Source of the DNA: a bacterium
Lineage (GTDB): Bacteria > UBP7 > UBA6624
Assembly (NCBI GenBank): GCA_014384545.1
Contig: JACNFQ010000052.1
Span: forward strand, 1-57,171
Direction: 5' to 3'
DNA length: 57,171 bases
The notes under the pieces were generated by a model. That model searched no databases. It was not told the origin of the DNA and saw nothing but the letters and a program-made list of their open reading frames with translations. Positions 15,230 to 41,720 of the stretch are shown here, in pieces; positions within the stretch are counted from its first letter, which is position 1; every line of letters begins with the position of its first letter. Made by a program: the position numbers and the translations under genes.

Positions 15230-16024
15230 TTATCCCTCTTTCTTCTTTGCTGCTTGATCGTCCAAGAAAGAATGTACTTTCTTCTTTGATGCGGGCAAAG
15301 ACCAAGACTCTGCAAAGAAGGAGGCTTCCGCTTCTAGCCCCGCACACAACCCCCTTTCAAGTGGCATTTGAAGTGCTTTCTTTGCCAGTGCAATGACATC
15401 GGGGTCTTTCGCAACGATAGGCGCCAAGAAAGCGAATGTCTCTTCTAAAAGGTCGCTATGGGCAACCGCCTTGTGAACCAAGCCCATTTCAAGCGCTTCC
15501 TTTGCGCGAAACTGCCTACCAGTCAAAACCAAATCCAACGCAGTAGGTCTCCCGACTAAGCGCGTAAGACGCTGAGTACCCCCCCAACCAGGGATTAGAC
15601 CGAGGTTGACTTCAGTCTGCCCAAACCGTGCACGCTTACTGGCAATCCGAAAATCACAACAAAGGGCAAGCTCTAATCCACCACCCAAACAGATGCCGTT
15701 GATAGCAGCGACCGTTACTAGGGGTATTGATTCAAACATCCCCCAAACCCGAATACCTTTCTTAGAGAGAGAGTGGGCACCAACGCTATCTTGCTCAATA
15801 AGTTCGGGTAAGTACGCCCCTGTTGAAAAGACGGGTCCACACCCCGTAAGAACGACCGCGTGTAATCGGTCGTCATTTGTAGCATTATTCAAAACCAGCT
15901 CTGTCTCTTCCAAAAGGGCATCAGATAAATTGTTTAGGGGATTGCCCGCCCACACAATCCGAACCACAAGCACTCTCTCTTGCTCAATCGCAGCCTCGAT
16001 GTAGTCTCCTTTATATGGGAACAC
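15230..16024 (-). CDS. enoyl-CoA hydratase/isomerase (crotonase) family protein
   Basis: 264 aa. VVLTGCGPVFSTGA...AAINGICLGGGLELALCCDFRIAS...FGQTEVNLGLIPGWGGTQRL is the crotonase fold signature. Its GTG start shares one nucleotide with the stop of the upstream gene (TAGTG). Confidence 0.85.
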   Translation of the reverse strand: MFPYKGDYIEAAIEQERVLVVRIVWAGNPLNNLSDALLEETELVLNNATNDDRLHAVVLTGCGPVFSTGAYLPELIEQDSVGAHSLSKKGIRVWGMFESIPLVTVAAINGICLGGGLELALCCDFRIASKRARFGQTEVNLGLIPGWGGTQRLTRLVGRPTALDLVLTGRQFRAKEALEMGLVHKAVAHSDLLEETFAFLAPIVAKDPDVIALAKKALQMPLERGLCAGLEAEASFFAESWSLPASKKKVHSFLDDQAAKKKEG

Positions 16025-17808
16025 TAGAACTTGAACTCAACCCCTCCCTTTTTCTTCCACTCCGCCGCCTTGGGTGCTCTCTTCTTACCCCTGTCAATCT
16101 CTTCCTTGCTTTGGAGGTAAAGGTCACCAGGGACACAGGGTGGGTAAGGGAATTGCATAATGACTGGTTGACTAAACCGTGCATGTTTCAAAAGGAGCGT
16201 TCCCTTAGGGAAAATCGCCATCTTGGACTTCACCTCTTCTGGCAAATAGGCGTAATCGGGTAGACCCAACTCGGTGGGTCCCGACCTTCCATAACAGAGG
16301 GTACTGGAGTTATCCGTAACCTGCTTGTCAATCATGGAGGCAAACTGTTCTGCTCCAAAAAGGGTAAGTCCCAACGACCGACCCCGTGCTGTGGCATGGA
16401 CAATCGCTTCCTTGAGGCTCGTTTCACTATCCGCAGGGGCAAACTTATTCAACTCATCCACAAAGACGATGATGTTATCTAGTCCTTCGGTTTCGGTCTT
16501 CTTTTCAACGAGTTCCGCCAAGCGACGCAATGTGCGTTCAAAGACCATTTTTTGCCCCCTCTCATGGAGAGCTTGGATATCAATTACGAAGATGTCTCCC
16601 GTCTGGAAATCATCCAAAGGAATGTCTTTGGGCTCCTCAGGAATGTCCCTTGAGTTCACCAATCCTTGGAAAAGGTCAGGGAGTGTCACGATGTTCTGAA
16701 CCAACTTGAAGAAGACCGTGCGCGTATGCCCATGCCAATGTTCTCTATCCCTCATCACCCGCCGCTCTTCGGTTAGGAAATCTACCAAATCAGGGAAATC
16801 GGACAGGGTATCGTCCTTATCTACGATATCCAGTAGATCCTCGTAGGCTGCTTGGACATTGTCATCCCAGTCCTCCTTCTCAAAAAGGTTGGGTAAGTAT
16901 CGGCGGAGTTCAGGAATATCCCAGAGGAAAACTTCTACTTTTCCGTCTTGACGCAAACAGTTCACCTTTGCTGTGGTATGCCCAGCATAGGGTGCAAAAA
17001 TACGGATTTGGTCAAAAGGTTCCGCTGGTACACCTAACTCTTTGTAGATGCGACGGTAGTAATCCCCCCGTTCGCCCACTTCATCAAGTTCGGGGTTCTT
17101 CTTGTCTAAGAACAGAAGATCCTTCCCTTTGACATTGAAGAGAACGATCCCAATGCGCCTCTTACGATAGGCATCGTTTTTCTTGAAGAAAGTCTGGACA
17201 CTCTTTAGCATAAACTCCACCAAACTTGTCTTTGTAGCCAAACCCGAGATACCACTAATATTGAAGTGGGCGCCTTCGGGCCCCAATAGAAACTCCACAT
17301 CTAAGAAGATCGGTGTGAGTTGCCCATCACCATTCTTGATAACACCGATGGGAACACCCCTGTCTTCGATGTATCCCTCCATCCCAAAAGCACGGCGAAT
17401 TCCCCCGGGGCTGGCGTAGTAGATGCTGGCTCGGGTAACGGGGCGGGCACGCTTATCCGTAGAGCCGATGATATTGGCACGCGCCACTATCACCTCAGAA
17501 ATATCTGTAGGAAGAGTTTGCTCGGGTCGACCAAAATCATGACTAATGAAGTCTGAAAGAAAGTTGGGCATATCCATTGTGGAACGGAGGTCAACAACGA
17601 CACCAAATGTAATGTGTCCATCTGCCCGAACTGCAGCAACGATATTTCCTAGTTCTAGGTTCTCTTCTTGGCGAGAAAGCCAAAAATGGAAGAATGACGA
17701 GGTGTTCGGGTTTTCGGCTGTACTTGCACCCTTCCCTACGGGACCATGGAACTCGTTGATATAACCCCGATAGTCCTCGGTTGCTAACTGAATTTTATTC
17801 TCGGTCAC
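16024..17808 (-). CDS. herA: HerA-like (DUF87/FtsK-HerA superfamily) ATPase
   Basis: Walker B IIVFVDELNKFAP, ARGRSLGLTLFGAEQFAS and an N-terminal barrel-like GNIVAAVRADGHITFGVVVDL. The P-loop position reads NISGISGLATKTS. Start set to GTG 17808, which has GAAGGA 9-10 nt upstream. The longest ORF (to 17967) would overlap the upstream gene by 109 nt. Confidence 0.72.
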   Translation of the reverse strand: MTENKIQLATEDYRGYINEFHGPVGKGASTAENPNTSSFFHFWLSRQEENLELGNIVAAVRADGHITFGVVVDLRSTMDMPNFLSDFISHDFGRPEQTLPTDISEVIVARANIIGSTDKRARPVTRASIYYASPGGIRRAFGMEGYIEDRGVPIGVIKNGDGQLTPIFLDVEFLLGPEGAHFNISGISGLATKTSLVEFMLKSVQTFFKKNDAYRKRRIGIVLFNVKGKDLLFLDKKNPELDEVGERGDYYRRIYKELGVPAEPFDQIRIFAPYAGHTTAKVNCLRQDGKVEVFLWDIPELRRYLPNLFEKEDWDDNVQAAYEDLLDIVDKDDTLSDFPDLVDFLTEERRVMRDREHWHGHTRTVFFKLVQNIVTLPDLFQGLVNSRDIPEEPKDIPLDDFQTGDIFVIDIQALHERGQKMVFERTLRRLAELVEKKTETEGLDNIIVFVDELNKFAPADSETSLKEAIVHATARGRSLGLTLFGAEQFASMIDKQVTDNSSTLCYGRSGPTELGLPDYAYLPEEVKSKMAIFPKGTLLLKHARFSQPVIMQFPYPPCVPGDLYLQSKEEIDRGKKRAPKAAEWKKKGGVEFKF

Positions 17809-17858
17809 AAGTCGTTGTCCTTCTTCTATTTTACTCTTATTCTTTCTGTTATCTCTAT

Positions 17859-18848
17859 CTAGACAGCCATTGCTCCATGTAGATACCACTTGATTGTCTC
17901 CGTTTTGGGGAGGTGGTTTGTCAAGAACTCGGTGCAAACTCTCACAGGATATATGAGCCTTTCCCACTTGGGGCGGGGGTAGGCAACAGGGTTTCGTAGG
18001 GCAAATACCCGTCGAGAAATCACGTCCACCTCGGTAGGGGGAATGGGATACCCAGAATAGATCTCGGGGCGAACAAGTCCAAAACTGGATGTATGCCCCA
18101 TCGGCTGCCTAATGCGGAGAAACCAAGATGTTATTTCGGCGCCTAGATCGTTCCTAAAAGTGAAAAGGGCGCTCCTCTCTCCATACCCAAGGCTATGTGT
18201 CCGCCGTTGTTGCTCGGAAGACAAAAAGAGAGGGTGGTTGTCCTTACATAACCCCACGGCGTGGGGCACACCCTCTGGTAGGTGCGAAAGAGAGCCATCA
18301 ACAAGAATCGTCTCTTGCCCACCCCTCTCTTTGACCCAGTCCAGCAGATGTTCCGATTCCAACTTGTGACGCAACTTACGAACCGCAAAGACTGCAGATC
18401 TTCGTTGGTCAGAAAAATACCCCGATTTTGCCCCCGTGTCGGTAAATCCTTCAGGAAGAGCACACCCTAGATGGGATTGCGAAAGGAGACCAAACTCTTC
18501 AATTCGTGGAGGACCAAACATCTGGAAGCCATTCCTTGTGGTTTGAATAATCAGACTGGCAATGATCGCATAGTGAACAGCAAGCCGCGTATCCCCCAGT
18601 TCGCACGCCCCCACTAGATGTGTGTGCTGAATCCCATCCATAAACCAAGCAATCTTCTCTTCTCCTCCTTCTAGAACCCCCTCTAGGGGTTGGATGATTC
18701 CCCCTTCATGTACTGTGGTGTTTTCCCTTAGATCAAGCCGAGAAGGTCCAAACGCCATCTCTTCAATATGATCTGCCGCAGCAATCTCCCCACCAGAGTC
18801 CACAAGAAAACGGCGAATCAGTTTCAGCTTGTCGGCAAGAAAGGGCAC
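17859..18848 (-). CDS. nurA: NurA-like nuclease
   Basis: 329 aa. The acidic motif series WFMDG..., ...KLESEHLL..., ETILVDGSL resembles the NurA D/E/D active-site pattern, and the gene lies directly upstream of the HerA-like ATPase. Confidence 0.55.
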   Translation of the reverse strand: MPFLADKLKLIRRFLVDSGGEIAAADHIEEMAFGPSRLDLRENTTVHEGGIIQPLEGVLEGGEEKIAWFMDGIQHTHLVGACELGDTRLAVHYAIIASLIIQTTRNGFQMFGPPRIEEFGLLSQSHLGCALPEGFTDTGAKSGYFSDQRRSAVFAVRKLRHKLESEHLLDWVKERGGQETILVDGSLSHLPEGVPHAVGLCKDNHPLFLSSEQQRRTHSLGYGERSALFTFRNDLGAEITSWFLRIRQPMGHTSSFGLVRPEIYSGYPIPPTEVDVISRRVFALRNPVAYPRPKWERLIYPVRVCTEFLTNHLPKTETIKWYLHGAMAV

Positions 18849-19035: not shown

Positions 19036-20064
19036 ATGAGACAGAAAAACGGAACAAGAAAAATACTCTTGGCTTTGTTGATTCTGACCCCGGTCGCTCT
19101 AGTGGCAATACCGGTGGGCGGAACAGATGTTTCTCTAAAAGGAGATGTCAACTTTAGGTATATTGACAACGATGGAGATACCGTTGGGGATAGTGCGGCT
19201 AGCGAACTACGCATCCGTCTCTTTGTTGGTGCAAAACTCACCGAATCGTTTTCGACAAATGCGGTGCTTTATGTCACTAGTAACCCACCCAACACAATTG
19301 CCGAGATTGGGAGTTCTTTGGGGGGGTCGATGGTCGCTGGTCCCGCCTATGTGACTTGGCACAATCCTTGGGGAGATTTAAAGGTAGGAAGGTTACACGC
19401 CAAGATGATTGGGAATAACTTGGTGGATAACACCGATATCTTTCATCAGTTCCAACTAGGCGTTTTCCATGGTGCTTTTGCTAGCTTCAATGACTTCAAT
19501 CGCTGGGACTTGGATTTCTATCTAAGAGAATCAAATGGTGTTGGTGCAACGGACGAAGGGCTTGCTTGGGGTCTCACCGTAGGTTTGGATGAGATGCTAG
19601 GTAACAAAGTGCACTTTGGGACAATCTCCTATGACAGTGATTATGCTTTACCTGGCAACTATCCAGCAGCACTAGCAGCGACCTACGATGGATTCCGTGC
19701 TTTTTATGCAGGTGCTTCTATCGGGCTGTCAGATATCACCGACCTGAACCTTGAGTGGATTTCTGGTTCTCAAGACAACTTGGGTGGTGGTTCAACCGAA
19801 GGAACTGCGCTCTTGAGCAGACTAGTTTACCCATTGGGAGATGACCTTTCCTTGGGTGTCGCTTATGGAACGATGGAGCCAGGAGCTACCATTGATGGTC
19901 TCTTTGGTGAGGCAGTTGCAGGAAACCCCGCATCAATGGATGGAGATATGTTGCGGTTTGATCTTCGTTGGAAGAACTGGACATTTAGCTTTATCAACTG
20001 GGAGGATGACTTGGCGGCTCAACAGGATACAGTTCTGCGTGCCGAATACCACATCAAATTCTAG
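19036..20064 (+). CDS. outer-membrane beta-barrel (porin-like) protein
   Basis: ATG 19036 is preceded by TAGGAGG. It has a signal peptide (KILLALLILTPVALVA), alternating beta-strand-like sequence, and a C-terminal ...AEYHIKF with terminal Phe, as in OMPs. Confidence 0.55.
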   Translation: MRQKNGTRKILLALLILTPVALVAIPVGGTDVSLKGDVNFRYIDNDGDTVGDSAASELRIRLFVGAKLTESFSTNAVLYVTSNPPNTIAEIGSSLGGSMVAGPAYVTWHNPWGDLKVGRLHAKMIGNNLVDNTDIFHQFQLGVFHGAFASFNDFNRWDLDFYLRESNGVGATDEGLAWGLTVGLDEMLGNKVHFGTISYDSDYALPGNYPAALAATYDGFRAFYAGASIGLSDITDLNLEWISGSQDNLGGGSTEGTALLSRLVYPLGDDLSLGVAYGTMEPGATIDGLFGEAVAGNPASMDGDMLRFDLRWKNWTFSFINWEDDLAAQQDTVLRAEYHIKF

Positions 20065-20065
20065 T

Positions 20066-20530
20066 TTGAACCCGTCGGAGAAGGCCAAAACCCCAAAGAC
20101 TGGCGTTGATCGCCGGGGGTTCCTTGCGCGGGCGTTGGCTATTGGCGGAGCTGCTGTCTCTTATGCGACCTTTGGTGGCTTCGCCCTCCGTTTCTTATAT
20201 CCCGATACCACGGGTGAAAAGAGACGGATGTACCTCGCGTCGATCTCTTCGCTTCCTAAGGGAAAAGCTGTTGTCGTTTCAACACCCTCAGGAAAACGAG
20301 TCGTTGTCTTGAATACCGCCGACGGCATTCGTGCATTCTCTACAATTTGTCCTCACTTGGGGTGCCAAGTACACTGGGAAGATGAAAATAACCACTTTTT
20401 CTGCCCTTGCCACAGCGCCGTGTTTGATCCCACAGGAAAGGCAATGGAGGGCCCCCCTGCTTCAGATGGAAAAGATATGTTGGCAGTGGAGATTGCCTTA
20501 GAAGGAGATGGTGTCTTCGCCTGGGTATGA
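20066..20530 (+). CDS. Rieske [2Fe-2S] subunit of a cytochrome b/Rieske complex (TAT signal)
   Basis: TTG 20066 lies just after the porin stop. Twin-arginine motif VDRRGFLARAL, and cluster ligands CPHLGC...CPCHSAVF. 4-nt overlap with the cytochrome b gene. Confidence 0.85.
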   Translation: MNPSEKAKTPKTGVDRRGFLARALAIGGAAVSYATFGGFALRFLYPDTTGEKRRMYLASISSLPKGKAVVVSTPSGKRVVVLNTADGIRAFSTICPHLGCQVHWEDENNHFFCPCHSAVFDPTGKAMEGPPASDGKDMLAVEIALEGDGVFAWV

Positions 20531-21564
20531 GTGGTTTCTGGCGTTCACGCATGCCCGTCAATGAAGAGGCGATAAAGGAGTTTGGTTCCGAGGCGGTTCC
20601 TGGACACCTGAAGAGATGGTGGTTTGCCCTAGGTGGCACACCAGCCTATCTCTTCATTGTCCAAGTATTTACGGGGATACTCCTTACTTTCTACTACATT
20701 CCCAACCCCGAAAAAGCCTATGATTCTGTCAGGTATATTACCGAGACAGTACCTTTTGGATGGTATATACGGGGGATGCATTTGTGGGGGTCTCACCTGT
20801 TGATTGTCGCTGTGATTCTCCATATGATGCGTGCGTTCTTTACGGGAACTTACCGAAAGCCCCGCGAGTTGACGTGGGTGTTGGGAGTCCTCCTCTTGCT
20901 ATTGATGATGGGGATGGGTTTCACAGGGTACAGTCTCGTTTACGAGCAGCTCTCCTATTGGGGGGCAACTGTGGCAAGCAATCTTACCGAGTCGGCACCC
21001 GGGATTGGACCGATCTTAGCAAACTTCATTCGGGGAGGTGCTGAAATTGGAGAAAACACACTTACCCGGTTTTATATCTTCCATATCGCTGCTGTGCCCA
21101 CCTTACTCGTTATGGTCTTGGCGGGTCATATTTGGATGGTGCGGACCCATGGTGTGAAAGAGCTTCATTTTGAGGATGAAGAGGAGTCGGAAAAGGGAAC
21201 ATTCCCCTTCTTCCCTAATCATTTCTTGACAGAGTTGCTCGTAGGTCTGGTGTTGATGGTTCTTCTATCAACACTCTCGGTTGTTTTCCCGGCTACTTTA
21301 GCAGATCCAGCAAACCCCTTAGTCACCCCCGAACATATCAAACCCGAATGGTATTTCCTCTTTACATTTAGGTGGTTGAAGTTAGCTGGTACAGATATGG
21401 CTATAGCCACAATGGGTCTATTTGCGCTCCTTTTTGTAGGGTGGCCTTGGGTGGACAAGTTGTTACGAAAGAAGAATCCTTCTAGTGAGGCGAGTGTGTT
21501 GATTGGAAGCCTCGTTACTTTGGGCTTGGTGGGGATGACGATGTGGGAGATATTCTCAGGTTAG
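20527..21564 (+). CDS. cytochrome b (fused b6 + subunit IV-type)
   Basis: 345 aa. Haem ligand pairs in GMHLWGSHLLIVAVILHMMR and FYIFHIAAVPTLLVMVLAGHIWM, and the Qo-site motif KPEWYFL in the C-terminal part. Confidence 0.92.
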   Translation: MSGFWRSRMPVNEEAIKEFGSEAVPGHLKRWWFALGGTPAYLFIVQVFTGILLTFYYIPNPEKAYDSVRYITETVPFGWYIRGMHLWGSHLLIVAVILHMMRAFFTGTYRKPRELTWVLGVLLLLLMMGMGFTGYSLVYEQLSYWGATVASNLTESAPGIGPILANFIRGGAEIGENTLTRFYIFHIAAVPTLLVMVLAGHIWMVRTHGVKELHFEDEEESEKGTFPFFPNHFLTELLVGLVLMVLLSTLSVVFPATLADPANPLVTPEHIKPEWYFLFTFRWLKLAGTDMAIATMGLFALLFVGWPWVDKLLRKKNPSSEASVLIGSLVTLGLVGMTMWEIFSG

Positions 21565-21579
21565 AAAAGGAGTAGATAG

Positions 21580-22992
21580 ATGGCAAGACATATGAGTCTC
21601 AATAGAAAGCAGGTTGTCGTTGGCACCTTGGGGTTGGTCTTTTTAGCCTCCCTTGTTGTCGTGGCTTGGGTAGAAGGAGGAAAACTCCGTTTCCAGCCCA
21701 AACCCGAACCTATCATTTCTAGTGAAAATGAAGGATGTGTTGCGTGTCATACCGAAAAAACCCCTGTGATTGTTCAACAATGGGCAGATAGTGAACATGG
21801 TCAATTAGGGGTGGGGTGTATTGGGTGTCACCAAGCCGAAAAGACGGATGTTGATGCGTATCGCCACGAGGGTGCTTTGATTGCAACGATCGTTACCCCC
21901 AATGATTGTGCGCGATGCCATGCCCAAGTTGCTGAAGAGTTCCAAGCAAGCCACCACGCCAAGGCGGGGGATATCTTGAACTCATTGGACAATATATTAG
22001 GGGAAGTTATAGAGGGGGTGCCAGCTGCGACAAATGGTTGTATCCAGTGCCACGGATCCAAAGTCGCACTCTTGACTGACGCGAATGGCAATGTACGGAA
22101 GGATGACGGCGGTCGACCGATGTTTGATCCTTCTACTTGGCCCAACTCAGGGATGGGACGCATCAACTTAGATGGAAGTCTTGGTTCTTGTTCCGCCTGT
22201 CATAGTCGACACACTTTTTCTCGCGCTATGGCTAGACAACCCGAGAACTGTGGGAAGTGCCACATGGGACCAGATCACCCGCAGATTGAGATCTACAACG
22301 AAAGTAAGCATGGTATCGCCTATGCCGCTTCTTCAGATGAAGATATGAATCTTGACGCTAAGAAATGGGTTGTGGGAGAAGATTACTTTGCAGCCCCCAC
22401 CTGTGCCACCTGCCATATGAGTGCCACACGCAACTTACCCGTTACTCACGATGTGGGCGACCGCATTTCATGGACGCTTCGTCCCAAGATATCTAAGCTA
22501 CTGGAAAACCACGAAGAGCGCCGCAGTCGGATGAAGGATGTGTGTGAGGCTTGCCACAGCCCTGGATTTACTCGGGGTTTCTATAAGCAATACGATGAGG
22601 CGATTCATCTGTACAACGACAAGTATGGGGGCCCCTCAACGACGATCATGGGGATGTTGAAAGAGAGAGGGTTGATTTCTCCCGATCCATTTGACGATCA
22701 TATTGAATGGGTCTATTTTGAACTTTGGCATCACGAAGGGAGACGCGCTCGGATGGGAGCCTCCATGATGGGACCAGACTACACCCAATGGCATGGTTTC
22801 TACGAAGTGGCTAAGCACTTCTACTTCAAGTTCCTTCCAATGGCCAAAGAGCTGTCTGAAGGGGACGAAGTGGCAATGGCATTGATAGACAGCATTCTCG
22901 CATCAGAAGAACACGCTTGGCTAGACGGGTTGTCCCTTGAGGACAGGGAGCGGCTAAAAGCGTACTACAAAGAGCGCTACGGCGACGAGTAG
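21580..22992 (+). CDS. membrane-anchored octahaem cytochrome c, hydroxylamine-oxidoreductase (HAO)-like family
   Basis: 470 aa with an N-terminal TM helix (VVVGTLGLVFLASLVVVAWV). Eight CxxCH motifs: CVACH, CIGCH, CARCH, CIQCH, CSACH, CGKCH, CATCH, CEACH. CGKCHMGPDHPQIEIYNESKHG and PTCATCHM resemble HAO-family signatures. Confidence 0.78.
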   Translation: MARHMSLNRKQVVVGTLGLVFLASLVVVAWVEGGKLRFQPKPEPIISSENEGCVACHTEKTPVIVQQWADSEHGQLGVGCIGCHQAEKTDVDAYRHEGALIATIVTPNDCARCHAQVAEEFQASHHAKAGDILNSLDNILGEVIEGVPAATNGCIQCHGSKVALLTDANGNVRKDDGGRPMFDPSTWPNSGMGRINLDGSLGSCSACHSRHTFSRAMARQPENCGKCHMGPDHPQIEIYNESKHGIAYAASSDEDMNLDAKKWVVGEDYFAAPTCATCHMSATRNLPVTHDVGDRISWTLRPKISKLLENHEERRSRMKDVCEACHSPGFTRGFYKQYDEAIHLYNDKYGGPSTTIMGMLKERGLISPDPFDDHIEWVYFELWHHEGRRARMGASMMGPDYTQWHGFYEVAKHFYFKFLPMAKELSEGDEVAMALIDSILASEEHAWLDGLSLEDRERLKAYYKERYGDE

Positions 22993-23016
22993 CCAGGAGG
23001 AATAAGGAGGAGCGAA

Positions 23017-25503
23017 ATGGCATTAGTATCTTTGATAATAACTAAGGAAGGTAAGGAGAGTGTGCGTGTGCTGGAGGGTGGTGATCTTGAAACCCTTGAC
23101 GCACAGATAGAAGCGATAAAGGCATCTGGCGAGGCTGATGATGTCAAGCCCGTTTTTATGAGTATTGAGAGGGCTGATTTTTCCAGGCGAGAGTTCCTCA
23201 AGCGCACAGCTTATACATTTGCTGCAGCTTTGATCCTGCCCACTTTCTCTTCTTGTGCTCCCTCCCTACAGCAATCGGCCGAGAAGATTCTCCTTTCGGA
23301 CCCCACCGTCAAGTGGAACAAGTCCACCTGTAGATTCTGCGGTGTGGGGTGTGGGGTAATGGTTGCAACGAAAGCGGGAACCGTTGTGGCAGTAGCAGGA
23401 GATGAAAAAAACCCTGTAAACAAGGGGCTTCTTTGTGTCAAGGGTTACCATCTTCCATCCATCCTTTATGGCTCGGATAGGCTTAAGAAACCCCTTGTAA
23501 GGAAGAATGGTGAGTTGGTGGAGACATCTTGGGACGAAGCTCTCTCTTTGGTTGCGTCCAAACTGAGTGAAACTCTCCAAACGAAGGGGCCTCGAGGTGT
23601 CGCGTTCTATGGTTCTGGTCAGTGGACTATCCAAGAGGGGTATGCGGCGAGCAAATTTATGCGCGCAGGCGTAAAGAGCAATCACCTAGAGGCAAACGCC
23701 AGGCTTTGTATGGCTTCAGCGGTTGTGGGTTTCCTTTTGTCCTTTGGGAAAGATGAACCAATGGGACCTTATGACGACATAGAGAAGACAGACAACTATG
23801 TGTTGTGGGGAAACAATATGGCGGAAATGCACCCCGTTCTTTTCTCTCGCATGCTAGAGAGACGAAAGAAAGCAAGCCATGTCAAGATTGTGGACCTTTC
23901 TACCCGAACGACCCGCACCTCGCAAGCTTCCGACCTCCATATTCTCTTCAAGCCCCAATCAGACTTAGCGATTGCTAATGGGATTGCGAATCTCCTAATA
24001 GAGAAGAACAAGATTGATAAAGATTTTGTCTCTAAGCACTGCAACTTCTCCGCTGGAAAAGAAGATATTGGGTATGGGTTGGAAGACAAGTTCGCGTTCA
24101 AGAAAGAGTCCCGTAAGCTTAGCTTTGAAGAATACGCTGCCTATGTTGCTGAATACACCCCCCAGCGTGTAGAAGAGATTTCTGGGGTATCTCCCAAGAA
24201 CCTAGCGACTCTAGCAGAGATTTATGGAGATCCCAATAGTGGCGTGGTCTCCTTTTGGTGTATGGGTGTGAACCAACATACAAGGGGTACTTGGATGAAC
24301 AACCTCATCAACAATCTCCATCTTTTGACAGGGAAGATCTCAAAGCCTGGAAACAACCCCTTCTCGCTTACAGGGCAGCCATCTGCGTGTGGAACGGTTC
24401 GTGAAGTGGGAACACTTGCTCACGCTCTCCCTGGCGGGCGAAAAGTCACAGTGCCAGATCATCGTGCTGATGTAGAGAAGGCTTGGAATGTGGAAGAGGG
24501 AACGATTCCCGATTGGGTGGGATACCATACAGTGGAGATGTTCCGTGCGGTTGACAGGGGTGAAATAGGATGGATGTGGATTCAGACAACGAACCCCATG
24601 GTGTCGATGCCCAAGTTGGGCAGGTATCTCAAGGCGATGGAAGATCGAAAGACCTTTCTCGTTGTTTCCGAAGTCTATCCCACGCCCACATCAGCTGTGG
24701 CGGATGTTGTCTTTCCCACCAACCTATGGGTTGAGAAAGAGGGTTGTTTTGGGAATAGCGAACGGCGCACCCAACAATGGGATGCAATTGCTACGCCTCC
24801 CGGTGAGGCGAAAAGCGATCTGTGGCAAATCATTGAAGTTGCAAAGCGTATGGGTTGGCACCATCTCTTTGAAGGGAACCACCCAGAAGAAGATCTCTAT
24901 GAGGAATATCGACAACTCACATTGGGGCGGGGCAAGGATGTTGCCCCCTACGAAACACTGAAAAAGACGCGAGGCATGAGATGGCCCGTTGTGGACGGGA
25001 AAGAGACCCTATATCGGTATAGGGGCGGAGAAGATCCCTATGTGCCAGACGGTGAAGATGTCTATTTTTACGGCAAGCCCGATGGAAAAGCTGTCATTTG
25101 GGCTCGCCCTTGGGAGCCTGCCCCTGAGATTCCTGATGAAGATTACCCCTTGTGGCTTTGCACGGGGAGAGTGTTGGAACATTGGCATACAGGATCGATG
25201 ACACGCCGTGTTCCTGAGCTACACGGCGCTATGCCAAAAGGTTTCATTGAGATACATCCTGAAGATGCAACTCTTCTTGGCATTCAAGACGGACAAGAGG
25301 TTCGCCTGACTAGCCGAAGAGGAGAGATTACTCTTCCTGCCTCAATAGGTGAAACCGCCCGGGGCACGCCCCCAATGGGGTCCGTCTTTGTCCCCTTCTT
25401 TGACGAGTCAAAACTAGTCAACCTTGTGACCCTAGATAGTTTCTGCCCCTTATCAAAAGAACCTGATTACAAGAAGTGTGCGGTAAGAGTCGAAGCTGTA
25501 TGA
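23017..25503 (+). CDS. napA: periplasmic nitrate reductase catalytic subunit NapA (molybdopterin oxidoreductase) with N-terminal extension
   Basis: TAT motif SRREFLKRTAY, [4Fe-4S] motif CRFCGVGCGV, and NapA-like sequence throughout (KGLLCVKGY, WCMGVNQHTRGTW, TGRVLEHWHTGSMT). ATG 23017 has a very strong SD (AGGAGGAATAAGGAGG). The alternative start ATG 23158 lies directly before the TAT motif. Confidence 0.9.
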   Translation: MALVSLIITKEGKESVRVLEGGDLETLDAQIEAIKASGEADDVKPVFMSIERADFSRREFLKRTAYTFAAALILPTFSSCAPSLQQSAEKILLSDPTVKWNKSTCRFCGVGCGVMVATKAGTVVAVAGDEKNPVNKGLLCVKGYHLPSILYGSDRLKKPLVRKNGELVETSWDEALSLVASKLSETLQTKGPRGVAFYGSGQWTIQEGYAASKFMRAGVKSNHLEANARLCMASAVVGFLLSFGKDEPMGPYDDIEKTDNYVLWGNNMAEMHPVLFSRMLERRKKASHVKIVDLSTRTTRTSQASDLHILFKPQSDLAIANGIANLLIEKNKIDKDFVSKHCNFSAGKEDIGYGLEDKFAFKKESRKLSFEEYAAYVAEYTPQRVEEISGVSPKNLATLAEIYGDPNSGVVSFWCMGVNQHTRGTWMNNLINNLHLLTGKISKPGNNPFSLTGQPSACGTVREVGTLAHALPGGRKVTVPDHRADVEKAWNVEEGTIPDWVGYHTVEMFRAVDRGEIGWMWIQTTNPMVSMPKLGRYLKAMEDRKTFLVVSEVYPTPTSAVADVVFPTNLWVEKEGCFGNSERRTQQWDAIATPPGEAKSDLWQIIEVAKRMGWHHLFEGNHPEEDLYEEYRQLTLGRGKDVAPYETLKKTRGMRWPVVDGKETLYRYRGGEDPYVPDGEDVYFYGKPDGKAVIWARPWEPAPEIPDEDYPLWLCTGRVLEHWHTGSMTRRVPELHGAMPKGFIEIHPEDATLLGIQDGQEVRLTSRRGEITLPASIGETARGTPPMGSVFVPFFDESKLVNLVTLDSFCPLSKEPDYKKCAVRVEAV

Positions 25504-26009
25504 GGAGGATCTTCCTAGTAGTAACGACCACCTTGCTCCTAGGGGGGTGTGGGGACGGTGGTGATCCCCGTCCTGGCACACGTGCTTACGCTGGGGCACC
25601 TCCGACGATACCTCACCAAGTGGAATCGCTGGGTCGAGGAAACTGTCTGGGTTGCCATGGGGCGGGGTTAGAGGTCTCGTTAGATGGTGACAAACAGAGG
25701 GGGCCAGAAACACCACACCCTAATCAACTCTCTTGCCGACAATGCCATGTCGTCTCTTCTGGAGAGAGCGTTGCATTTGGCCATACGATCTTTCAAGGTG
25801 CCCTTCCCGGGAAAGGTGGAAACCGTAGCCACCCTATCGCCCCACCCCTGATACCGCACCCTCTTCAAAACAGGAAGGAATGTCTCTCTTGCCATGGGGA
25901 CTTAGGGGATTTAAAAGCTCCAACGAGCTCTCACCAAGATCGTCTATCTTGTTCCCAGTGCCATATCCCCTTAAACCCAGAGCTAGGGGCTTGGCTTCCG
26001 CCTAAGTAG
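25500..26009 (+). CDS. napB: tetrahaem lipoprotein composed of two tandem NapB-like dihaem units
   Basis: The ATG at 25500 overlaps the napA stop (ATGA). Lipobox LLLGGC. Unit 1 is PPTIPH..CLGCH...PHP..LSCRQCHV and unit 2 is APPLIPH...CLSCH...SH..RLSCSQCHI. Each reproduces the NapB pattern PP.IPH / C..CH / C.QCH. Confidence 0.75.
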   Translation: MRRIFLVVTTTLLLGGCGDGGDPRPGTRAYAGAPPTIPHQVESLGRGNCLGCHGAGLEVSLDGDKQRGPETPHPNQLSCRQCHVVSSGESVAFGHTIFQGALPGKGGNRSHPIAPPLIPHPLQNRKECLSCHGDLGDLKAPTSSHQDRLSCSQCHIPLNPELGAWLPPK

Positions 26010-26501: not shown

Positions 26502-27818
26502 TTAGAGGGGGATTGATTTGCCATCAATCAGGACCGCATAGGGGTCATAGGTAGTCGCTTCTAGGTCACCACTAAAGTCGGAGTGTTCCACCTTTACATC
26601 TAAGACGGTCACCTCTTCTCCCGTCTTTGTCTGTCCAAGGCGCTTCCCAGCAGCATCCCAACCCTTGACTAGGATTTCGCCACCATCAAGTGTTGAAAGT
26701 CGTGCACTACCAGGGCGATTCCCTCGTAGGGGGTTAGAAACCTTTACTTTTCCCTTGATTGCCTTCCCAAATCCTTCCGAACGCCATGGGGTCTCTAGCG
26801 CCATTTCCTGGTACGGTTTGCACCATGGCTTGGCATCGCACCAGTTGCAAGTTTCGGGGTGGGGGTTGGCTTCAAAAGAAGCTTCTGGCTTGCCCGATAA
26901 CCTAGAGATTTCGGCACCCGCCTCTCTAATCATCAACCCTATCGCATCGGCCTCCTTCTTGTCGGGGGCAAACCCCTCAACGTGGTCGTGCGCCGTGTAC
27001 CAGAACTCTACCCTTTTGGGTAATGCCCCCCACATCTCTTCTGCCAAATGAGCATAGATCTGTCCCTGCAAGGCATGGTCTGGTGGTAAACCCTCTACGG
27101 GGGGAGAACATCCGCCACTCTTGAAGTCTACCAAGAGGGTCCCTTCTTTGTTCTCTTGGGCGTAATCAATATAGCCCCCTACTTTGCCATCTTTACTAAA
27201 CGCAGCAACTTCCCTATGGGTGGGCATTGCTCTTTCCAGCCCCTCTGCTGTCATCCTCCCTTGGGTGATGCGGTCTAATGCCCAAAGAGCTTGGTCAATC
27301 GCTGATGTTTCTTTTCTGTCGTCCCACCTGCCCCTAGACCGTTTCGCGGTCTCAAATTGGCTCTTCTTTTTGCTCCATTGGGTGCGCACAATATGGTCTA
27401 CCCACTGGGGGGGCGAAGCCAAACTGAAGTCGCAATCAAAGACGCGTTCAATGGCATCATGGACGAGTGTCCCCACATGGAGAGCTTGGCTGTCCACAAA
27501 GGGGATCGTTCTCTCATAAGAAAAGTGATAGTTTCGGGGACACGCCAAAAACCCCTTTGCCTTAGAGAAACTCGTAGCCCCTTTCTTCCACTCACCCCGA
27601 GTCCGCTGGGGGGCAACAAGTGGAGGACCTTCCCGCATGGGGGAAAGAGGATTCTTGCCCAAGAACCATTCCTCAATCTTTAGCTCTCCCTCGGTATTGG
27701 GCCCCTCAACAACGCTCTTCGGAAACCACTGTTCATATCCATCTTGCCTTGCAAGAAGCAGTGCTTTTGCGGTCTCCCTCACCTTTGTCCATACGCCGAT
27801 TACTTCTTCTTTTGCCAT
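26502..27818 (-). CDS. PD-(D/E)XK nuclease, Cas4/AddB-like with four-Cys Fe-S motif, plus extra N- and C-terminal domains
   Basis: 438 aa. The first Cys is in LACPRNY, followed by HVGTLVHDAIE, GGYIDY (Asp), LLVDFKSGG (D-x-K), QGQIYAHL (QxxxY) and a C-terminal CNWCDAKPWC. Confidence 0.7.
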   Translation of the reverse strand: MAKEEVIGVWTKVRETAKALLLARQDGYEQWFPKSVVEGPNTEGELKIEEWFLGKNPLSPMREGPPLVAPQRTRGEWKKGATSFSKAKGFLACPRNYHFSYERTIPFVDSQALHVGTLVHDAIERVFDCDFSLASPPQWVDHIVRTQWSKKKSQFETAKRSRGRWDDRKETSAIDQALWALDRITQGRMTAEGLERAMPTHREVAAFSKDGKVGGYIDYAQENKEGTLLVDFKSGGCSPPVEGLPPDHALQGQIYAHLAEEMWGALPKRVEFWYTAHDHVEGFAPDKKEADAIGLMIREAGAEISRLSGKPEASFEANPHPETCNWCDAKPWCKPYQEMALETPWRSEGFGKAIKGKVKVSNPLRGNRPGSARLSTLDGGEILVKGWDAAGKRLGQTKTGEEVTVLDVKVEHSDFSGDLEATTYDPYAVLIDGKSIPL

Positions 27819-29636: not shown

Positions 29637-30281
29637 GTGATGGTGAGGCTGATTGTGGGAGCGGTTCTCGTCTTGGTAGCCGTCTTTCTCGTCCTTGTGA
29701 TGCGGGCAACGAAGAAGCGGAGGGAAGAGATGGCGATGGTGGCAGAAGCGTTGGGTTGGGGTTTTCAACCCCATAGGTTTTCTCTAAAGGGCAAACCCTA
29801 CGCCCGCCTGCCGTTGCTGCGGAGGGGGTCATTCGGAACCAACGCCCTCTTGAAAGAAGGGGAAGCCGTCTCTTTCTTTGATTTTACCTATGTGGTCCAT
29901 ACGGGCAAGAGTTCCCAGGCTGTCATCCAAACGGTCGCTCTCTTCCAGTCTGAGGGTGACCTCCCGCGATTCTCCCTAAGGCCCGAACACTTTGGGGATC
30001 GCATAGCGTCCAAACTGGGCTGGAAGGATATTGACTTTGAAGATGAAGAGGACTTCTCAAACGCCTACTTCCTGAAGGGGAAGGACGAATCCGCTGTGCG
30101 GAGCCTCTTCAACTGGCACTTGCGTGATCACTTGTCCAGAGAACAGGGATGGTCCCTAGAGGGCGAGGGGCACTGGGTGCTGATTTACCGCCATGGCAAA
30201 CGCGCTTCGCCCGGAGATTATGCCCGGTTCATAGAAGCGACAGAGACGCTCTTTGGCTATCTGGAGAAATCGACCCTCTAA
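29637..30281 (+). CDS. N-terminally anchored protein, unknown function
   Basis: 214 aa with one N-terminal TM helix (LIVGAVLVLVAVFLVLV) followed by a soluble domain. Coding-like composition. Confidence 0.5.
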   Translation: MMVRLIVGAVLVLVAVFLVLVMRATKKRREEMAMVAEALGWGFQPHRFSLKGKPYARLPLLRRGSFGTNALLKEGEAVSFFDFTYVVHTGKSSQAVIQTVALFQSEGDLPRFSLRPEHFGDRIASKLGWKDIDFEDEEDFSNAYFLKGKDESAVRSLFNWHLRDHLSREQGWSLEGEGHWVLIYRHGKRASPGDYARFIEATETLFGYLEKSTL

Positions 30282-30988
30282 TCTCTAAGTTTTCTCTGGA
30301 AGGAAAGTCCAGCCCATAAGGCGTAGCCAAGAACGAGGACCACCCCACTAAACCACGTAATGGCGTAGGGAAGGTGCGGGGTATCTCGGACGGGCAATGT
30401 CCATCCAGTAACAGGTAATGAGGGGCTAGGTGGATGCCCTGCGGGGTCTTTTTCTTTGCCGACAATAACTGACCAACCCAATAGCGACAGCCCCAAATCG
30501 GCTGCCATTTCCTGGGGGGCAAAGCCTCGCCAATGGTTTCCCTCTAGACGGGGATTACCTTTCCACGCAGGCAAGAACGCTGCAATCCCATCAATCCTGT
30601 CATTGGTGGGGAGGGCATCTAAGTGAGTCTCAATTCCCTCTTGGGGTAGCCACCCACGGTCAACCAAGATTGCGTAATCAGGATTACCACCCACCAAGAA
30701 TCGCATGACCACCCTAAAGCCAGGTTGACTACTTTCGAAATACCCCACCACAAGTTGAGGTTTTCCTACAAATTCACCCTCCAAAACAACCAACCTGCGA
30801 CCCCCTTCCATAGGGCCACCCCCCGCCAATACCTCCTCGTTCTCTAAGGGTAGCAGCGCCAGTTCTTTGTGGGCAATAGCAAGCAATTCTTGTTGTTCTT
30901 GGTGCCGCTCCCATTGCCACATCCCCAACGAAGAGAAGAGTGTCAATGCCCCCACAACGGCAACCCATCCCAGTACTGTTCTAGCCAT
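30278..30988 (-). CDS. SURF1 family protein (haem-copper oxidase assembly factor-like)
   Basis: 236 aa with an N-terminal TM helix plus LGMWQWERHQEQQ, then VDRGWLP and a C-terminal TM helix. This is the SURF1/Shy1 pattern. Confidence 0.72.
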   Translation of the reverse strand: MARTVLGWVAVVGALTLFSSLGMWQWERHQEQQELLAIAHKELALLPLENEEVLAGGGPMEGGRRLVVLEGEFVGKPQLVVGYFESSQPGFRVVMRFLVGGNPDYAILVDRGWLPQEGIETHLDALPTNDRIDGIAAFLPAWKGNPRLEGNHWRGFAPQEMAADLGLSLLGWSVIVGKEKDPAGHPPSPSLPVTGWTLPVRDTPHLPYAITWFSGVVLVLGYALWAGLSFQRKLRD

Positions 30989-31464: not shown

Positions 31465-31595
31465 TGGATTGGGAACCCATCAAGAACGAGATCGTCTAGA
31501 AGGGGAAGCGTCCACCGTCCCCCTAGATCTAACACACACCAAGAAACAGCCGTCTATAATAATAGTTGTTCTCAGTGGGTCTCTTGGAGGTTGGT

Positions 31596-34500
31596 ATGAA
31601 TAAACGAGCAATCATCACCATCGTTCTCTTTGTAGTGGGGTGTGGTGGTGGTGGTGGCAATAATCCCCTAGTGAACGATAGAAAACCACCTACGCCCACT
31701 GAAGTTGCACTAGGGTTTGAACATGGGACACCAGGGCGACATATCCGGGCAACCACGATGGACGCTGCCGAAGGCTCCCTAGTTGTAGCAGATGGCGAGG
31801 TGTTGATTAGGTACAAAGAAGGCACACCTTGGTCAAGAATAGAGCGTGTGGTCCTGGCGTATGGCCATCTGATTGATGGGCATATCCCCGCCATCAACGC
31901 AATCAGGATTCGTCTACCGGAGGGCTTTGACCTTCAAGAAGCGATTGGCGTCTATGGTGGACTGGACTGGTCAACCTATTCAGCGCCTAACGGTATGGTG
32001 GAACTAGCCCGCACCTCAAACGACCCCCTACGGTACAGCCAGTGGTGGCATCAAACTGCAAACATTCCTACAGCTTGGGATACCTCTACCGGCGATCCAC
32101 ATCAGTCCATCGCCATCATCGACTCGGGCATTGCCAACACACACGCTGACCTATCTGGCAAAATAGATTCTGATCCCGGCTGGGATCTCTGGAACGATGA
32201 CGCTGAGCCTTGGGAGGAGTGGGGGGATTGCGGGTCGCTGTTCAACTATGGCCATGGCTCACACGTCGCCGGGATCGCCACGGCATCAAGCAACAACCTT
32301 CAAGGGGTTGCTGGCGTGTCTTGGGATACAAAGATCGTCTCATATAGGGTGTTTGGTCCTTGCTGGGGTAATGGTGCTTCGTTTTGGGATATCGCCACGG
32401 CAATCACGATGGCCGCCAAGAGACCTGACGTGGTGGTCATCAACCTTAGTTTAGGTGGCGAGGGGGCTGATGGGGTAATACACGGTGCTGTCAAGTTTGC
32501 GCACGAAAAGGGAAAGGTAATCGTTGCAGCCGCTGGGAATAGCAACTCCAGCATAGTGAATTACCCTGCCGGCTACCCCGAAGTGATTGCTGTCGCCTCT
32601 CTGGGGCAAAGCGAGTGCCGTGCTTCCTACTCAAACTATGGCTCTTGGATTGACATCGCTGCCCCCGGTGGTGAATCCAGTGTTGACAATGGCGTTCTCT
32701 CTACCTACTTTGATGGGATCACCTCCAACCTTTATGCTGGCTTACAAGGGACCTCAATGGCTTCTCCCGTTGTAGCGGGTATAGTTGCGCTCCTCAAGGC
32801 ACAACACCCCGAATGGGGGCCCGAAACAGTTAGGCAAGTACTCAAGCAGAGTGCTGACGCATCTATTTTCAACCTTGGGTGCAATGCCGGGTTCGAGAGC
32901 CTCCTAGGCGCAGGGCTAGTCGATGCTGCAGCTGCCATTGGTTCTACCGATATCACATCCCCTCAATTACAGGATGCGTTTCCTGTTGCGCCCGATGTCG
33001 TCCAGATGGTTTTCACCGAGAAGATGGATCTTTCAACACTTATCCCTGGGCAAGCTTATCTAAGGGTATGGGGAACCAGTGGGTTCCAGATACCCTCTTT
33101 GGTCCAGGTACTAGACAAGGGGAGGGACACAACCGTCTTGCTGACCTTTGATTCGCCCCTGCCCACCACGGAAACCCTCTATGCCGGCGCAGGTGCGGGC
33201 GTGACGGATCTTGCCGGAAATGCCTTCACAGGAAACGGGGTGGGCTTCGTCGCCCCTTCCGCACCTGTGAACTGGGCTTCTGCTCTTGAAAGCGCCACCG
33301 CCCAATCCAACTGTACCTTTAGTGGTGGTACAAGTGGGTTGTCAGGCATCGATGGCGATACGGCAACTGTGTGGGAGGGGTGTTCTTGGATTGACAATGG
33401 ACAGTTAGGTTCAACTTGCTTTATCAGTAGGTTTTCTGAACCTCGTTATGTGGGGCAGGTCACTGTGCATCTAGGTTGGAACGAGGATAACATGGGTGGA
33501 ATCGTCTATCTCATGATGGATGAGCAAGACAACCCATCTCTTGATGAATGTGACGCTGGGATGCTAGGAGAGTCTCACGTGCGCATCGGTGAGATTCCTG
33601 CTGGACAATCTGGGTGGATGAGCTTTGAAACAGCCTCTCCCGTCTATGCCCAAGAGGTTTATATCTGTTGGGTGTCAAGCGATGGAATGTCTTGTGCCTC
33701 AGACAAGCGCCCCACAGTCTCGGAGTTGGAAGCTTACACTGTACAGGTGCCAACGATGGAAGAGGGCTGTGTCGCGTGTTCTGTTCCAGGCCCCACCCCC
33801 ACCATTAGCCTTGTCCAAGGGGCGCTTGATCTCCGTCTAAAGTGGAAAGATATAAACTGGGCAAGTGAATACCGGGTTTATAGGGATGACGGGCTTGGCA
33901 ATTGGAACGCTGTAGCCACGCTTCCAGCTGGTACATTGAACTGGACTGATACCACTGTTGATCCAGCCACCACATACATCTATGCCTTGACCGCAGTGGA
34001 TGAAGGTGGCAATGAGACCACCTTTGGGCAAACTGCCTCTGGATTTGTGGTTCGAGGTGAGCAAGCCTCACCTCTTTGGGGGTCGCGCGCCGTTGTTCTT
34101 CATCAAGCTAGCGGGAAGCCTCGTCTTCCTTTCCAAGATGCGTATTCTTTTCGGCGGGTCAAGGATGGAGGAATGAACAGCAACATCTCCTCATGGTGGC
34201 AAAACAACATTGATACATCCACCTCAGGAGGGGATCTTGGCGTAGAACTGCGCGGTGCTATAAGTGGTGGGAACTTAGCGCTCTCCTACCTAGATGTAGG
34301 GCGCTTTTATGTGAAGACCTCCTACAACTTTGGGGGAGGATGGGTGCTGTCTACTGTTGACACAGGGGGGGCTAAAGCGAACGGGCCCTCGGTCGCCTTA
34401 GACAACAGCACCATCTTTGTCGGGTATGGGCGCGAAGCCTATTACTTCCTAGAGTCCAACGATTACTTGAGGGTAGCTACAAAGTATGCCGGCCAATCCT

Positions 34501-41600: not shown

Positions 41601-41720
41601 ACACCCATTTAATCACAGCAGCAGACAGATGTTCGCTCTTGGGGTACTATCTATCCCCAAAACACCTTGCTCCCGCCCTGAAAACACCGGTTGGATAGGT
41701 GTCCCCTAGAATAAGTGGCG

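Follow-up and report, generated by a model that had tools for sequence, protein, structure and literature searches.

Closest described systems

Caldithrix abyssi carries a gene cluster (Cabys_2564-2556) that encodes NapM, NapA, NapG, NapH, a Rieske protein, cytochrome b and the octahaem cytochrome εHao. From genomic prediction alone, it was proposed that electrons pass there from quinol through Rieske/cytochrome b to NapM and/or εHao, with a possible proton-motive gain (Kublanov et al., 2017; PMC5317091). In Nitrospira, a Rieske/cytochrome b pair is co-expressed with an octahaem nitrite reductase ('ONR') and has been proposed to link the quinone pool to nitrite reduction with ammonium as the product, and in lineage IV NapC takes the place of the pair (PMC6606698; PMC12342949). 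Kuenenia stuttgartiensis encodes, within Kuste4569-4574, the octahaem protein Kuste4574, which resembles hydroxylamine oxidoreductase (HAO) and co-migrates with a Rieske/cytochrome b complex (PMC12954380). Nap of Campylobacter jejuni depends on QcrABC (Garg et al., 2018; PMC6195509), and nap-εHao or nap-pMHC clusters are found in Campylobacterota, Deferribacteres and cable bacteria (PMC6896113; bioRxiv 10.1101/2020.02.22.960823). Here we analyze a six-gene unit (positions 19036-26009) in a 57,171-nucleotide (nt) stretch of contig JACNFQ010000052.1 (assembly GCA_014384545.1), hereafter the window. The unit encodes a porin-like protein, a Rieske protein, cytochrome b, a membrane-anchored octahaem cytochrome c, the periplasmic nitrate reductase NapA and a double NapB (NapB2). 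An initial annotation of this DNA did not recognize the architecture as a described system; the C. abyssi nap-Rieske/cytochrome b-εHao locus, the Nitrospira module and the anammox HAO-like Rieske/cytochrome b complex of Kuenenia all precede it.

Gene organization and protein identities

We propose, with the case for and against about evenly balanced, that the six genes form one operon for respiratory nitrate reduction via nitrite, in which a Q-cycle complex would take over quinol oxidation from NapC or NapGH. All six open reading frames (ORFs) are co-directional, on the forward strand, and the coordinates and content first assigned to them proved correct on inspection of ORFs, Pfam and NCBIfam. 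Annotation with profile hidden Markov models (HMMs) likewise matched the Rieske, cytochrome b, octahaem, NapA and NapB profiles. The Rieske and cytochrome b genes share an ATGA overlap at 20527-20530, as do napA and napB2 at 25500-25503. Gaps of 1 nt (porin/Rieske, with the TTG start), 15 nt (cytochrome b/octahaem) and 24 nt (octahaem/napA) separate the others, so that the operon-like packing is as originally claimed. The unit lies between opposite-strand genes, at 17859-18848 upstream and 26502-27818 downstream. Judged by spacing, the 4-nt overlaps and the 15-24-nt gaps point to a single transcript.

The Rieske [2Fe-2S] protein gene (20066..20530, +) starts at a TTG; a public gene call places the start instead at an ATG at 20006, giving a 59-nt overlap with the porin gene. 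Its product matches PF00355 at 49 bits and carries the motifs CPHLGC and CPCHSAVF behind a twin-arginine (TAT) signal/anchor, RRGFL. In box II, Ala stands at the position of the bc1 Ser and Phe at that of the bc1 Tyr. The pattern CPCH-x-G/A-x-F/Y is kept in 36 of 36 related loci, with F in 34. In bc1 complexes the Ser and Tyr of box II raise the potential of the Rieske cluster, and their loss predicts a low-potential, menaquinol-type cluster. As both are missing here, a cluster of that type is predicted.

Cytochrome b (20527..21564, +) joins a b6-like part to a subunit-IV-like part in one protein. It matches PF00033 at 181 bits, PF13631 and, at its C-terminus, the subunit-IV-like PF00032 at 41 bits; the best NCBIfam models are ExtP (218 bits) and cytochrome b6 (203 bits), each below its own cut-off. 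His85, His99, His186 and His201 have b6-type spacing, and PEWYF is present. The paired CxHxGC and CxCH motifs of the Rieske protein, with the four His ligands and the PEWY motif of cytochrome b, predict a b6f-like Rieske/cytochrome b complex. The adjoining c-type protein, its putative third subunit, is neither a monohaem cytochrome c1 or f nor a dihaem cytochrome c but an anchored octahaem member of the HAO family.

This octahaem cytochrome c (21580..22992, +) has eight CxxCH motifs, all invariant across 30 homologues, and matches PF13447 at 102 bits, with partial matches to hydrazine dehydrogenase (HDH)/HAO models. A profile search of the PDB placed the Ignicoccus hospitalis octahaem cytochrome c (IhOCC; 4qo5, E 3e-62) far ahead of Kuenenia HAO-like proteins and HDH, and of HAO from N. 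europaea (1fgj, E 1e-26). Foldseek on a predicted model of moderate quality (mean predicted local distance difference test score, pLDDT, 76.8) returned 4qo5 (E 1e-13) and 4n4j (E 1e-6) at template-modelling (TM) scores of ~0.3, low values that reflect the distortion of the haem-free model. The HAO order of its eight CxxCH motifs, together with the sequence and fold similarity, places the protein in the HAO/IhOCC clade. Parey et al. reportedly found in 2016 that IhOCC reduces nitrite and hydroxylamine. In the literature IhOCC counts as an octahaem nitrite reductase that lacks the P460 cross-link, and it shares one clade with HAO and HDH (PMC9250108).

The octahaem protein is not of the TvNiR/TaNiR/NrfA type, since all eight of its motifs are CxxCH and the CxxCK catalytic haem motif is absent. 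TaNiR of Trichlorobacter was considered as the closest characterized enzyme and set aside, because TaNiR relatives are described with a CxxCK haem (PMC12142623). The distal Asp-His pair of HAO from N. europaea (GVDHNNWEAY) aligns with an invariant D232-H233 in this family (GPDHPQIEIY), which suggests a catalytic haem pocket rather than an electron wire alone. At the N-terminus, a helix is predicted at residues 7-37 (pLDDT ~90). Octahaems linked to Rieske/cytochrome b genes all carry the anchor MSLxxKRxIVAxLSFLFL, whereas unlinked homologues have unrelated signal peptides. We regard the protein as a putative c-subunit of the Rieske/cytochrome b complex and a putative nitrite reductase.

NapA (23017..25503, +) scores above both equivalog thresholds, with 1014.2 bits for NF010055 (cut-off 904) and 984.2 bits for TIGR01706 (cut-off 930.55), and contains the Pfam domains Molybdop_Fe4S4 (PF04879, 67 bits), Molybdopterin and Molydop_binding. 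Its twin-arginine motif, SRREFLK, lies at residues 56-62, behind an unusual extension of 47 aa (23017..23157, +). A strong Shine-Dalgarno sequence precedes the ATG at 23017, and none precedes the internal ATG at 23158. Relatives encode a separate 75-aa NapD (PF03927, 45 bits) between hao and napA (loci L002, L003, L004, L006, L023, L028 and L041), for which there is no room in the window. One Cloacimonadota locus (L016, 6394-6700) encodes an in-frame fusion of a complete NapD with NapA. The 47-aa extension scores 0.4 bits (E 0.03) against an HMM built from the relatives' NapDs and has no Pfam match; by eye it looks similar to the latter half of NapD. A truncated NapD joined to NapA is a possible reading. 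It would be unusual for a chaperone to be fused ahead of the signal peptide that it binds.

The last gene, napB2 (25500..26009, +), encodes a tetrahaem lipoprotein with an LGGC lipobox, four CxxCH motifs and two PPxIPH motifs. Its match to the NapB family (PF03892) is weak but above threshold (34.9 bits, cut-off 25.1), and its first half aligns with the NapB structure 3ml1_B over residues 26-90. In place of the single dihaem domain of NapB, the protein has two NapB-like repeats. Profile comparison of one half with the other (hhalign 99.3%, E 5e-20) indicates a tandem duplication and bears out the double NapB of the initial annotation.

To survey the rest of the window, Pfam was run on most ORFs of at least 150 aa, including all that are publicly unannotated, and the recorded Pfam families of public gene calls around the cluster were added. 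In agreement with the initial annotation, these scans found no napC, napG/H, napF, nrfA, nirS/K or free-standing napD in the 57-kb window; nrfH, nor and nos were not found either. Within the window, the nap genes are accompanied by neither NapC nor NapGH, the donors of canonical Nap clusters. In the window, no ORF outside the six-gene unit has more than a single CxxCH motif.

Conservation of the gene order

A scan with an octahaem profile, limited to one genome per species, returned at least 595 relatives, of which the 80 closest (47-63% identity) were examined. Rieske and cytochrome b genes lie directly upstream of the octahaem gene in 39 of the 80 loci and are absent in 36. Directly downstream, NapA (at least 50% identity) follows in 15 of the 39 linked loci, usually with a 75-aa NapD; NapB2 is present in 14 of the 15, the last being cut by a contig end. 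More distant NapA genes, followed by a single NapB, occur in three linked loci from Bacteroidales/Chlorobiota, with NapG and NapH between them in two. The Rieske-cytochrome b-octahaem genes stand without Nap in 18 linked loci, and the remaining three were not evaluable for Nap. The order Rieske-cytochrome b-Hao-(NapD)-NapA-NapB2 was found in Planctomycetota, Myxococcota, Acidobacteriota, Gemmatimonadota, Cloacimonadota, Calditrichaceae and unclassified bacteria. A search of public genomes for this order, which the initial annotation had suggested, recovers it in several phyla: of the 80 loci, 15 have NapA downstream, 14 of them with NapB2.

The four haem motifs of NapB2 are kept in 14 of 14 fully syntenic loci. 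Within up to 10 kb, these 14 loci contain no homologues of NapG or NapH, nor does the window, and three of them hold further multihaem ORFs. The adjacency in 39 of the 80 loci, and an anchor that occurs in linked octahaems alone, lend indirect support to the assignment of the octahaem as the c-type partner of Rieske/cytochrome b. Where the three genes stand without Nap (18 loci), the octahaem protein must itself serve as the terminal acceptor.

A rough neighbour-joining tree of the octahaems interleaves the forms linked and not linked to Rieske/cytochrome b, which indicates that the modules were shuffled repeatedly. A simple single origin of the linked octahaems was rejected on the same tree. 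The Bacteroidales/Chlorobiota variant (L009, 6543-16629; L014, 6493-16595; L018, 1595-9546) has the order Rrf2-Alginate_exp-type porin-Rieske-cytochrome b-octahaem-distant NapA (~40% identity)-NapG-NapH-single NapB. A conserved protein of ~208 aa with no Pfam match follows NapB2 or the octahaem gene in several loci (L006, 14613-15239; L003, 8509-9021; L061, 14662-15120; L051, 11687-12157; L092, 8533-9156; L107, 963-1301), two Myxococcota and one Gemmatimonadota genome being among the carriers. This protein is a candidate accessory factor.

NapA-NapB2 and its quinol-oxidizing neighbours

A metagenome scan with a NapB2 profile gave 524 relatives, and 80 loci were examined. In every evaluable locus, NapA is encoded directly upstream of NapB2. 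Rieske/cytochrome b-Hao genes adjoin NapA-NapB2 in 12 of these loci, four in the order of the window and eight in the permuted order NapA-NapB2-Rieske-cytochrome b-octahaem (L091, L093, L094, L096, L097, L102, L106 and L116). The permuted contigs indicate that the two modules are linked in either order. A NapG-like protein is encoded downstream of NapA-NapB2 in 10 loci. Neither Rieske/cytochrome b-Hao nor NapG is found in 17 loci evaluable on both sides. Many of those 17 encode, before NapA or after NapB2, a multihaem cytochrome c, a TAT-signal Fer4_11 iron-sulfur (FeS) protein and an NrfD-family protein (for example L095, 8467-11420; L100, 1927-4684; also L101, L111, L126, L127, L129, L141, L145 and L148). 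By its gene content, this cytochrome c/Fer4_11/NrfD module looks like a third kind of quinol-oxidizing partner of Nap besides NapC and NapGH.

As judged from these neighbourhoods, NapA-NapB2 is a portable terminal module, usually beside exactly one quinol-oxidizing module of three kinds. In the window, Rieske/cytochrome b fills the slot held elsewhere by NapGH or an NrfD-type module, which is a positional argument for docking. The idea that the double NapB is an adapter specific to Rieske/cytochrome b was rejected, NapB2 also occurring with NapG and with cytochrome c/FeS/NrfD modules.

The porin-like gene

The first gene of the unit (19036..20064, +) opens at an ATG behind an AGGAGG ribosome-binding motif and encodes a predicted porin-like outer-membrane beta-barrel with a signal peptide and the C-terminal residues YHIKF. 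The protein has no Pfam or NCBIfam match. An AlphaFold2 model built from four sequences, of low confidence (pLDDT 57.8), has ~16 strands, and Foldseek with this low-confidence model matched the porins OmpC, OmpF and OmpK36 (E~5e-9, TM 0.57-0.62). An exhaustive search of 1.84 billion representative proteins found five relatives, and a word-indexed search of 5.8 billion found the protein itself alone. The one relative with usable genomic context does not lie beside Rieske/cytochrome b genes, and tblastn of the porin against the 80 octahaem loci gave no matches.

Outer-membrane barrels of the Alginate_exp type are encoded in 16 related loci, upstream of Rieske in Bacteroidales and downstream of NapB2 elsewhere, so an outer-membrane channel is a recurring companion of these clusters. 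An Rrf2 regulator is another recurrent neighbour. A relationship between the window porin and the Alginate_exp-type barrels was rejected, as the family HMM gave the porin 0.1 bits (E 0.017), short of the inclusion threshold.

Proposed electron transfer and alternatives

In the proposed operon, menaquinol would be oxidized at the Qo site formed by the b6-type cytochrome b and the low-potential Rieske protein. One electron would recycle through the b haems, giving a proton-motive step. The other would pass from the Rieske cluster to the anchored octahaem protein, standing in for cytochrome c1 or f. The octahaem protein would itself be a terminal enzyme, most likely reducing nitrite to ammonium, by analogy with IhOCC, εHao, BOGUAY_0691 and the Nitrospira module, with NO as an alternative product. 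Electrons for nitrate would reach NapA through the lipid-anchored NapB2, delivered either by the same periplasmic haem network or by the Rieske protein directly, and NapA would convert nitrate to nitrite. Nitrate and nitrite would cross the outer membrane by way of the porin-like protein. Such a layout, read from the genes, probably lets nitrate and nitrite reduction pump protons.

A number of observations weigh against this proposal, and its weakest link is the Nap branch. The series wiring from octahaem through the two NapB domains to NapA, as first drawn, was pure conjecture: L009 and L014 carry NapGH within the Rieske/cytochrome b-Hao cluster, and NapA-NapB2 occurs without Rieske/cytochrome b. 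Where NapGH shares a cluster with Rieske/cytochrome b-Hao (L009, L014 and C. abyssi), Nap may bypass Rieske/cytochrome b; these cases indicate that Nap can have its own donor despite the adjacent genes. NapB2 is not specific to Rieske/cytochrome b and so gives no direct evidence of docking. The description of the cluster as 'self-contained' is not demonstrable within a 57-kb window, as genes for NapC, NapGH or a soluble cytochrome c may lie elsewhere in the genome. Many haems are low-potential in the HAO-family enzymes whose haem potentials are known, and a Rieske cluster of roughly +100-150 mV may or may not reduce them efficiently. Two tyrosines near the C-terminus of the octahaem protein, Y463 and Y467, are invariant, and alignments to HAO, KsHOX and HDH stop short of the cross-link region in three PDB sequence searches, one with a C-terminal profile. 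The porin had been counted as part of the cluster; it belongs to an orphan family that is not conserved with it. Scans for σ70 promoters and terminators gave no clear signals at the borders of the unit.

Much of this evidence also fits two independent systems that are merely co-located and co-regulated, an explanation that we consider rather unlikely. Rieske/cytochrome b and the octahaem protein would then form a quinol:nitrite oxidoreductase, NapA-NapB2 would be served by a donor encoded outside the window (NapC, NapGH, a cytochrome c/FeS/NrfD module or a soluble cytochrome c), and the genes would be adjacent since the nitrite made by Nap is the substrate of the octahaem. Clusters of nap and hao without Rieske/cytochrome b are common, and those of Campylobacterota, Deferribacteres and cable bacteria are interpreted as such separate systems (PMC6896113; bioRxiv 10.1101/2020.02.22.960823). 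Two separate systems would also be consistent with the presence of NapGH and Rieske/cytochrome b-Hao in one cluster in L009 and L014, with NapA-NapB2 beside NapG or NrfD-type modules and no Rieske/cytochrome b, and with the 18 Rieske/cytochrome b-Hao loci without Nap. The absence of NapG/H within up to 10 kb in the 14 syntenic loci, and in the window, argues against them, and only three of the loci have extra multihaem ORFs. So does the metagenome pattern, in which NapA-NapB2 usually stands with exactly one quinol-oxidizing module, here Rieske/cytochrome b, and so do the 4-nt overlaps and 15-24-nt gaps that point to a single transcript.

The wiring of the single operon could also be kept with a different product. 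If the octahaem protein reduced nitrite to NO, the operon would start denitrification or NO production and not ammonification, which we regard as improbable. HAO-family members without the cross-link, such as the tyrosine-less HAO of Kuenenia, can form NO according to Ferousi et al. (2021) as reported in PMC9250108, and NO formation has been proposed for Kuste4574 in its Rieske/cytochrome b complex (PMC12954380). The nearest solved relative of the window protein is, however, IhOCC; ammonium formation is reported for εHao and its relative BOGUAY_0691 (bioRxiv 10.1101/2020.02.22.960823); and the Nitrospira Rieske/cytochrome b-octahaem module is expressed for the assimilation of nitrite to ammonium (PMC6606698). 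Pfam scans of the window, moreover, gave no nor or nos genes.

Multihaem cytochromes replace cytochrome c1 in many Rieske/cytochrome b clusters (PMC12954380; Dibrova 2013, as cited in PMC5317091), and the octahaem protein could accordingly be a mere electron wire in place of cytochrome c1 or f, which would limit the cluster to the step from nitrate to nitrite. The 18 three-gene loci without Nap or any other adjoining reductase speak against this, as do the invariance of the distal Asp-His and of all eight haem motifs and the fact that its relatives are enzymes; we think a wire very unlikely. Oxidation of hydroxylamine or a similar donor, with electrons entering the quinone pool by reverse operation, is hardly credible: the family includes true hydroxylamine and hydrazine oxidases, and the invariant C-terminal tyrosines are candidates for the cross-link residue, but IhOCC is a much closer match to the protein than the oxidizing HAO/HDH enzymes are (E 3e-62 vs 1e-26), its partner is a nitrate reductase, no amo-like genes are present and the C. 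abyssi homologue is reported to lack the cross-link tyrosine (PMC5317091).

A bolder extension of the proposed operon, possible though on balance doubtful, would unite Rieske/cytochrome b, the anchored octahaem nitrite reductase, NapB2 and NapA in one membrane supercomplex that passes all eight electrons from nitrate to ammonium through the Q-cycle, as a major and widespread route of nitrate ammonification in uncultured phyla. If this were true, an enzyme, and not cytochrome c1 or f, would end the high-potential chain, and the operon, as such a route in uncultured Planctomycetota, Myxococcota, Acidobacteriota, Gemmatimonadota and others, would go unseen by surveys based on nrfA.

Periplasmic nitrate and nitrite reduction is usually regarded as non-electrogenic at the quinol-oxidizing step. 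If Nap and the octahaem protein both draw on Rieske/cytochrome b, extra proton-motive force would be gained per electron and nitrate ammonification would have a higher energy yield. Such a yield would bear on the competition between ammonification and denitrification, that is, on nitrogen retention versus loss. The module is widespread in uncultured phyla and, as it lacks nrfA, would escape marker-gene surveys of dissimilatory nitrate reduction to ammonium. The occurrence of NapA-NapB2 in at least three quinol-oxidizing contexts offers a comparative framework for experiments, and the compact variant in the window is a clean system for probing Q-cycle-coupled nitrate ammonification.

Other genes in the window and the host

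Housekeeping genes elsewhere in the window encode L25, Pth, transketolase, transaldolase, PyrG, a KdsA-like protein, a lipid A acyltransferase and MetRS; signal peptidases, RNase HII, TrmD, S16, proteases, a Na+/H+ exchanger and SURF1 are also encoded. The CTP synthase PyrG (4127-5746) has at most 74% identity to any database protein and 56-60% to named taxa across many phyla, too wide a scatter for a taxonomic assignment. The host appears to be a deep-branching, poorly sampled diderm. The presence of SURF1 (30278-30988) is a hint that a haem-copper oxidase is encoded in another part of the genome. Upstream of the cluster, two ORFs on the reverse strand (16024-17967 and 17859-18848; 647 and 329 aa) overlap by ~110 nt and have no Pfam match; the 647-aa product contains a Walker-B-like stretch, IIVFVDELNKF. 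Large secreted-type proteins are encoded at 31566-35090 (an S8 subtilase of 1174 aa) and at 41715-45542 (1275 aa, with Ig-like Big_13 and Y_Y_Y domains).

Comparison with known systems

A targeted, non-exhaustive full-text literature search found no description of the exact variant (Rieske-cytochrome b-anchored octahaem-(NapD)-NapA-double NapB without NapGH or NapM), nor of the double NapB as such or of the three-way modularity of NapA-NapB2. We conclude that the concept has been published before, as have two close architectures, in the form of genomic predictions, none of them biochemically characterized.

Canonical NapAB resembles the window system in its NapA equivalog, its TAT signal and its NapB-type haem partner. 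The window differs in having no NapC, NapG or NapH, a tetrahaem, duplicated NapB, and no free-standing NapD or NapF. In the nap-εHao and nap-pMHC clusters, Nap likewise adjoins an octahaem nitrite reductase of the HAO family, which replaces NrfA in nitrate ammonification; electrons there arrive through NapGH or NapC/NrfH-type proteins and not through Rieske/cytochrome b, and the octahaem protein is soluble or differently anchored. IhOCC (4QO5) is the closest solved structure to the window octahaem by both sequence profile and fold. It is archaeal, ~25% identical, has Asp-Val where the window protein has Asp-His and has no documented Rieske/cytochrome b partner.

The C. jejuni system shares with the proposed operon a menaquinol-oxidizing Rieske/cytochrome b complex that feeds periplasmic Nap and makes nitrate reduction electrogenic. 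Its qcr and nap genes are unlinked, however, the c-subunit QcrC is dihaem, NapGH is present and the complex contains no octahaem enzyme. The Kuenenia complex combines, like the window genes, a b6-type Rieske/cytochrome b with an HAO-like octahaem that is a proposed nitrite reductase, but it has extra multihaem subunits and an NAD(P) oxidoreductase, a Rieske protein of ~+300 mV, cytochrome b split into b6 and subunit IV, and no Nap. The Nitrospira ONR module (see also Koch 2015) shares the three-gene unit with the window, the two being likened by gene content and not by orthology; an assimilatory role is proposed for it, and no Nap is attached.

In both the C. abyssi locus and the window, a single co-directional cluster encodes an octahaem Hao together with NapA, Rieske and cytochrome b, and NapC is missing. 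In C. abyssi the order is napM-napA-napG-...-napH-Rieske-cytochrome b-hao, with NapM and NapGH and no NapB. In the window it is Rieske-cytochrome b-hao-napA-napB2, with no NapGH or NapM, and the cluster has instead a double NapB, a porin-like gene and a NapA extension that may be a truncated NapD.

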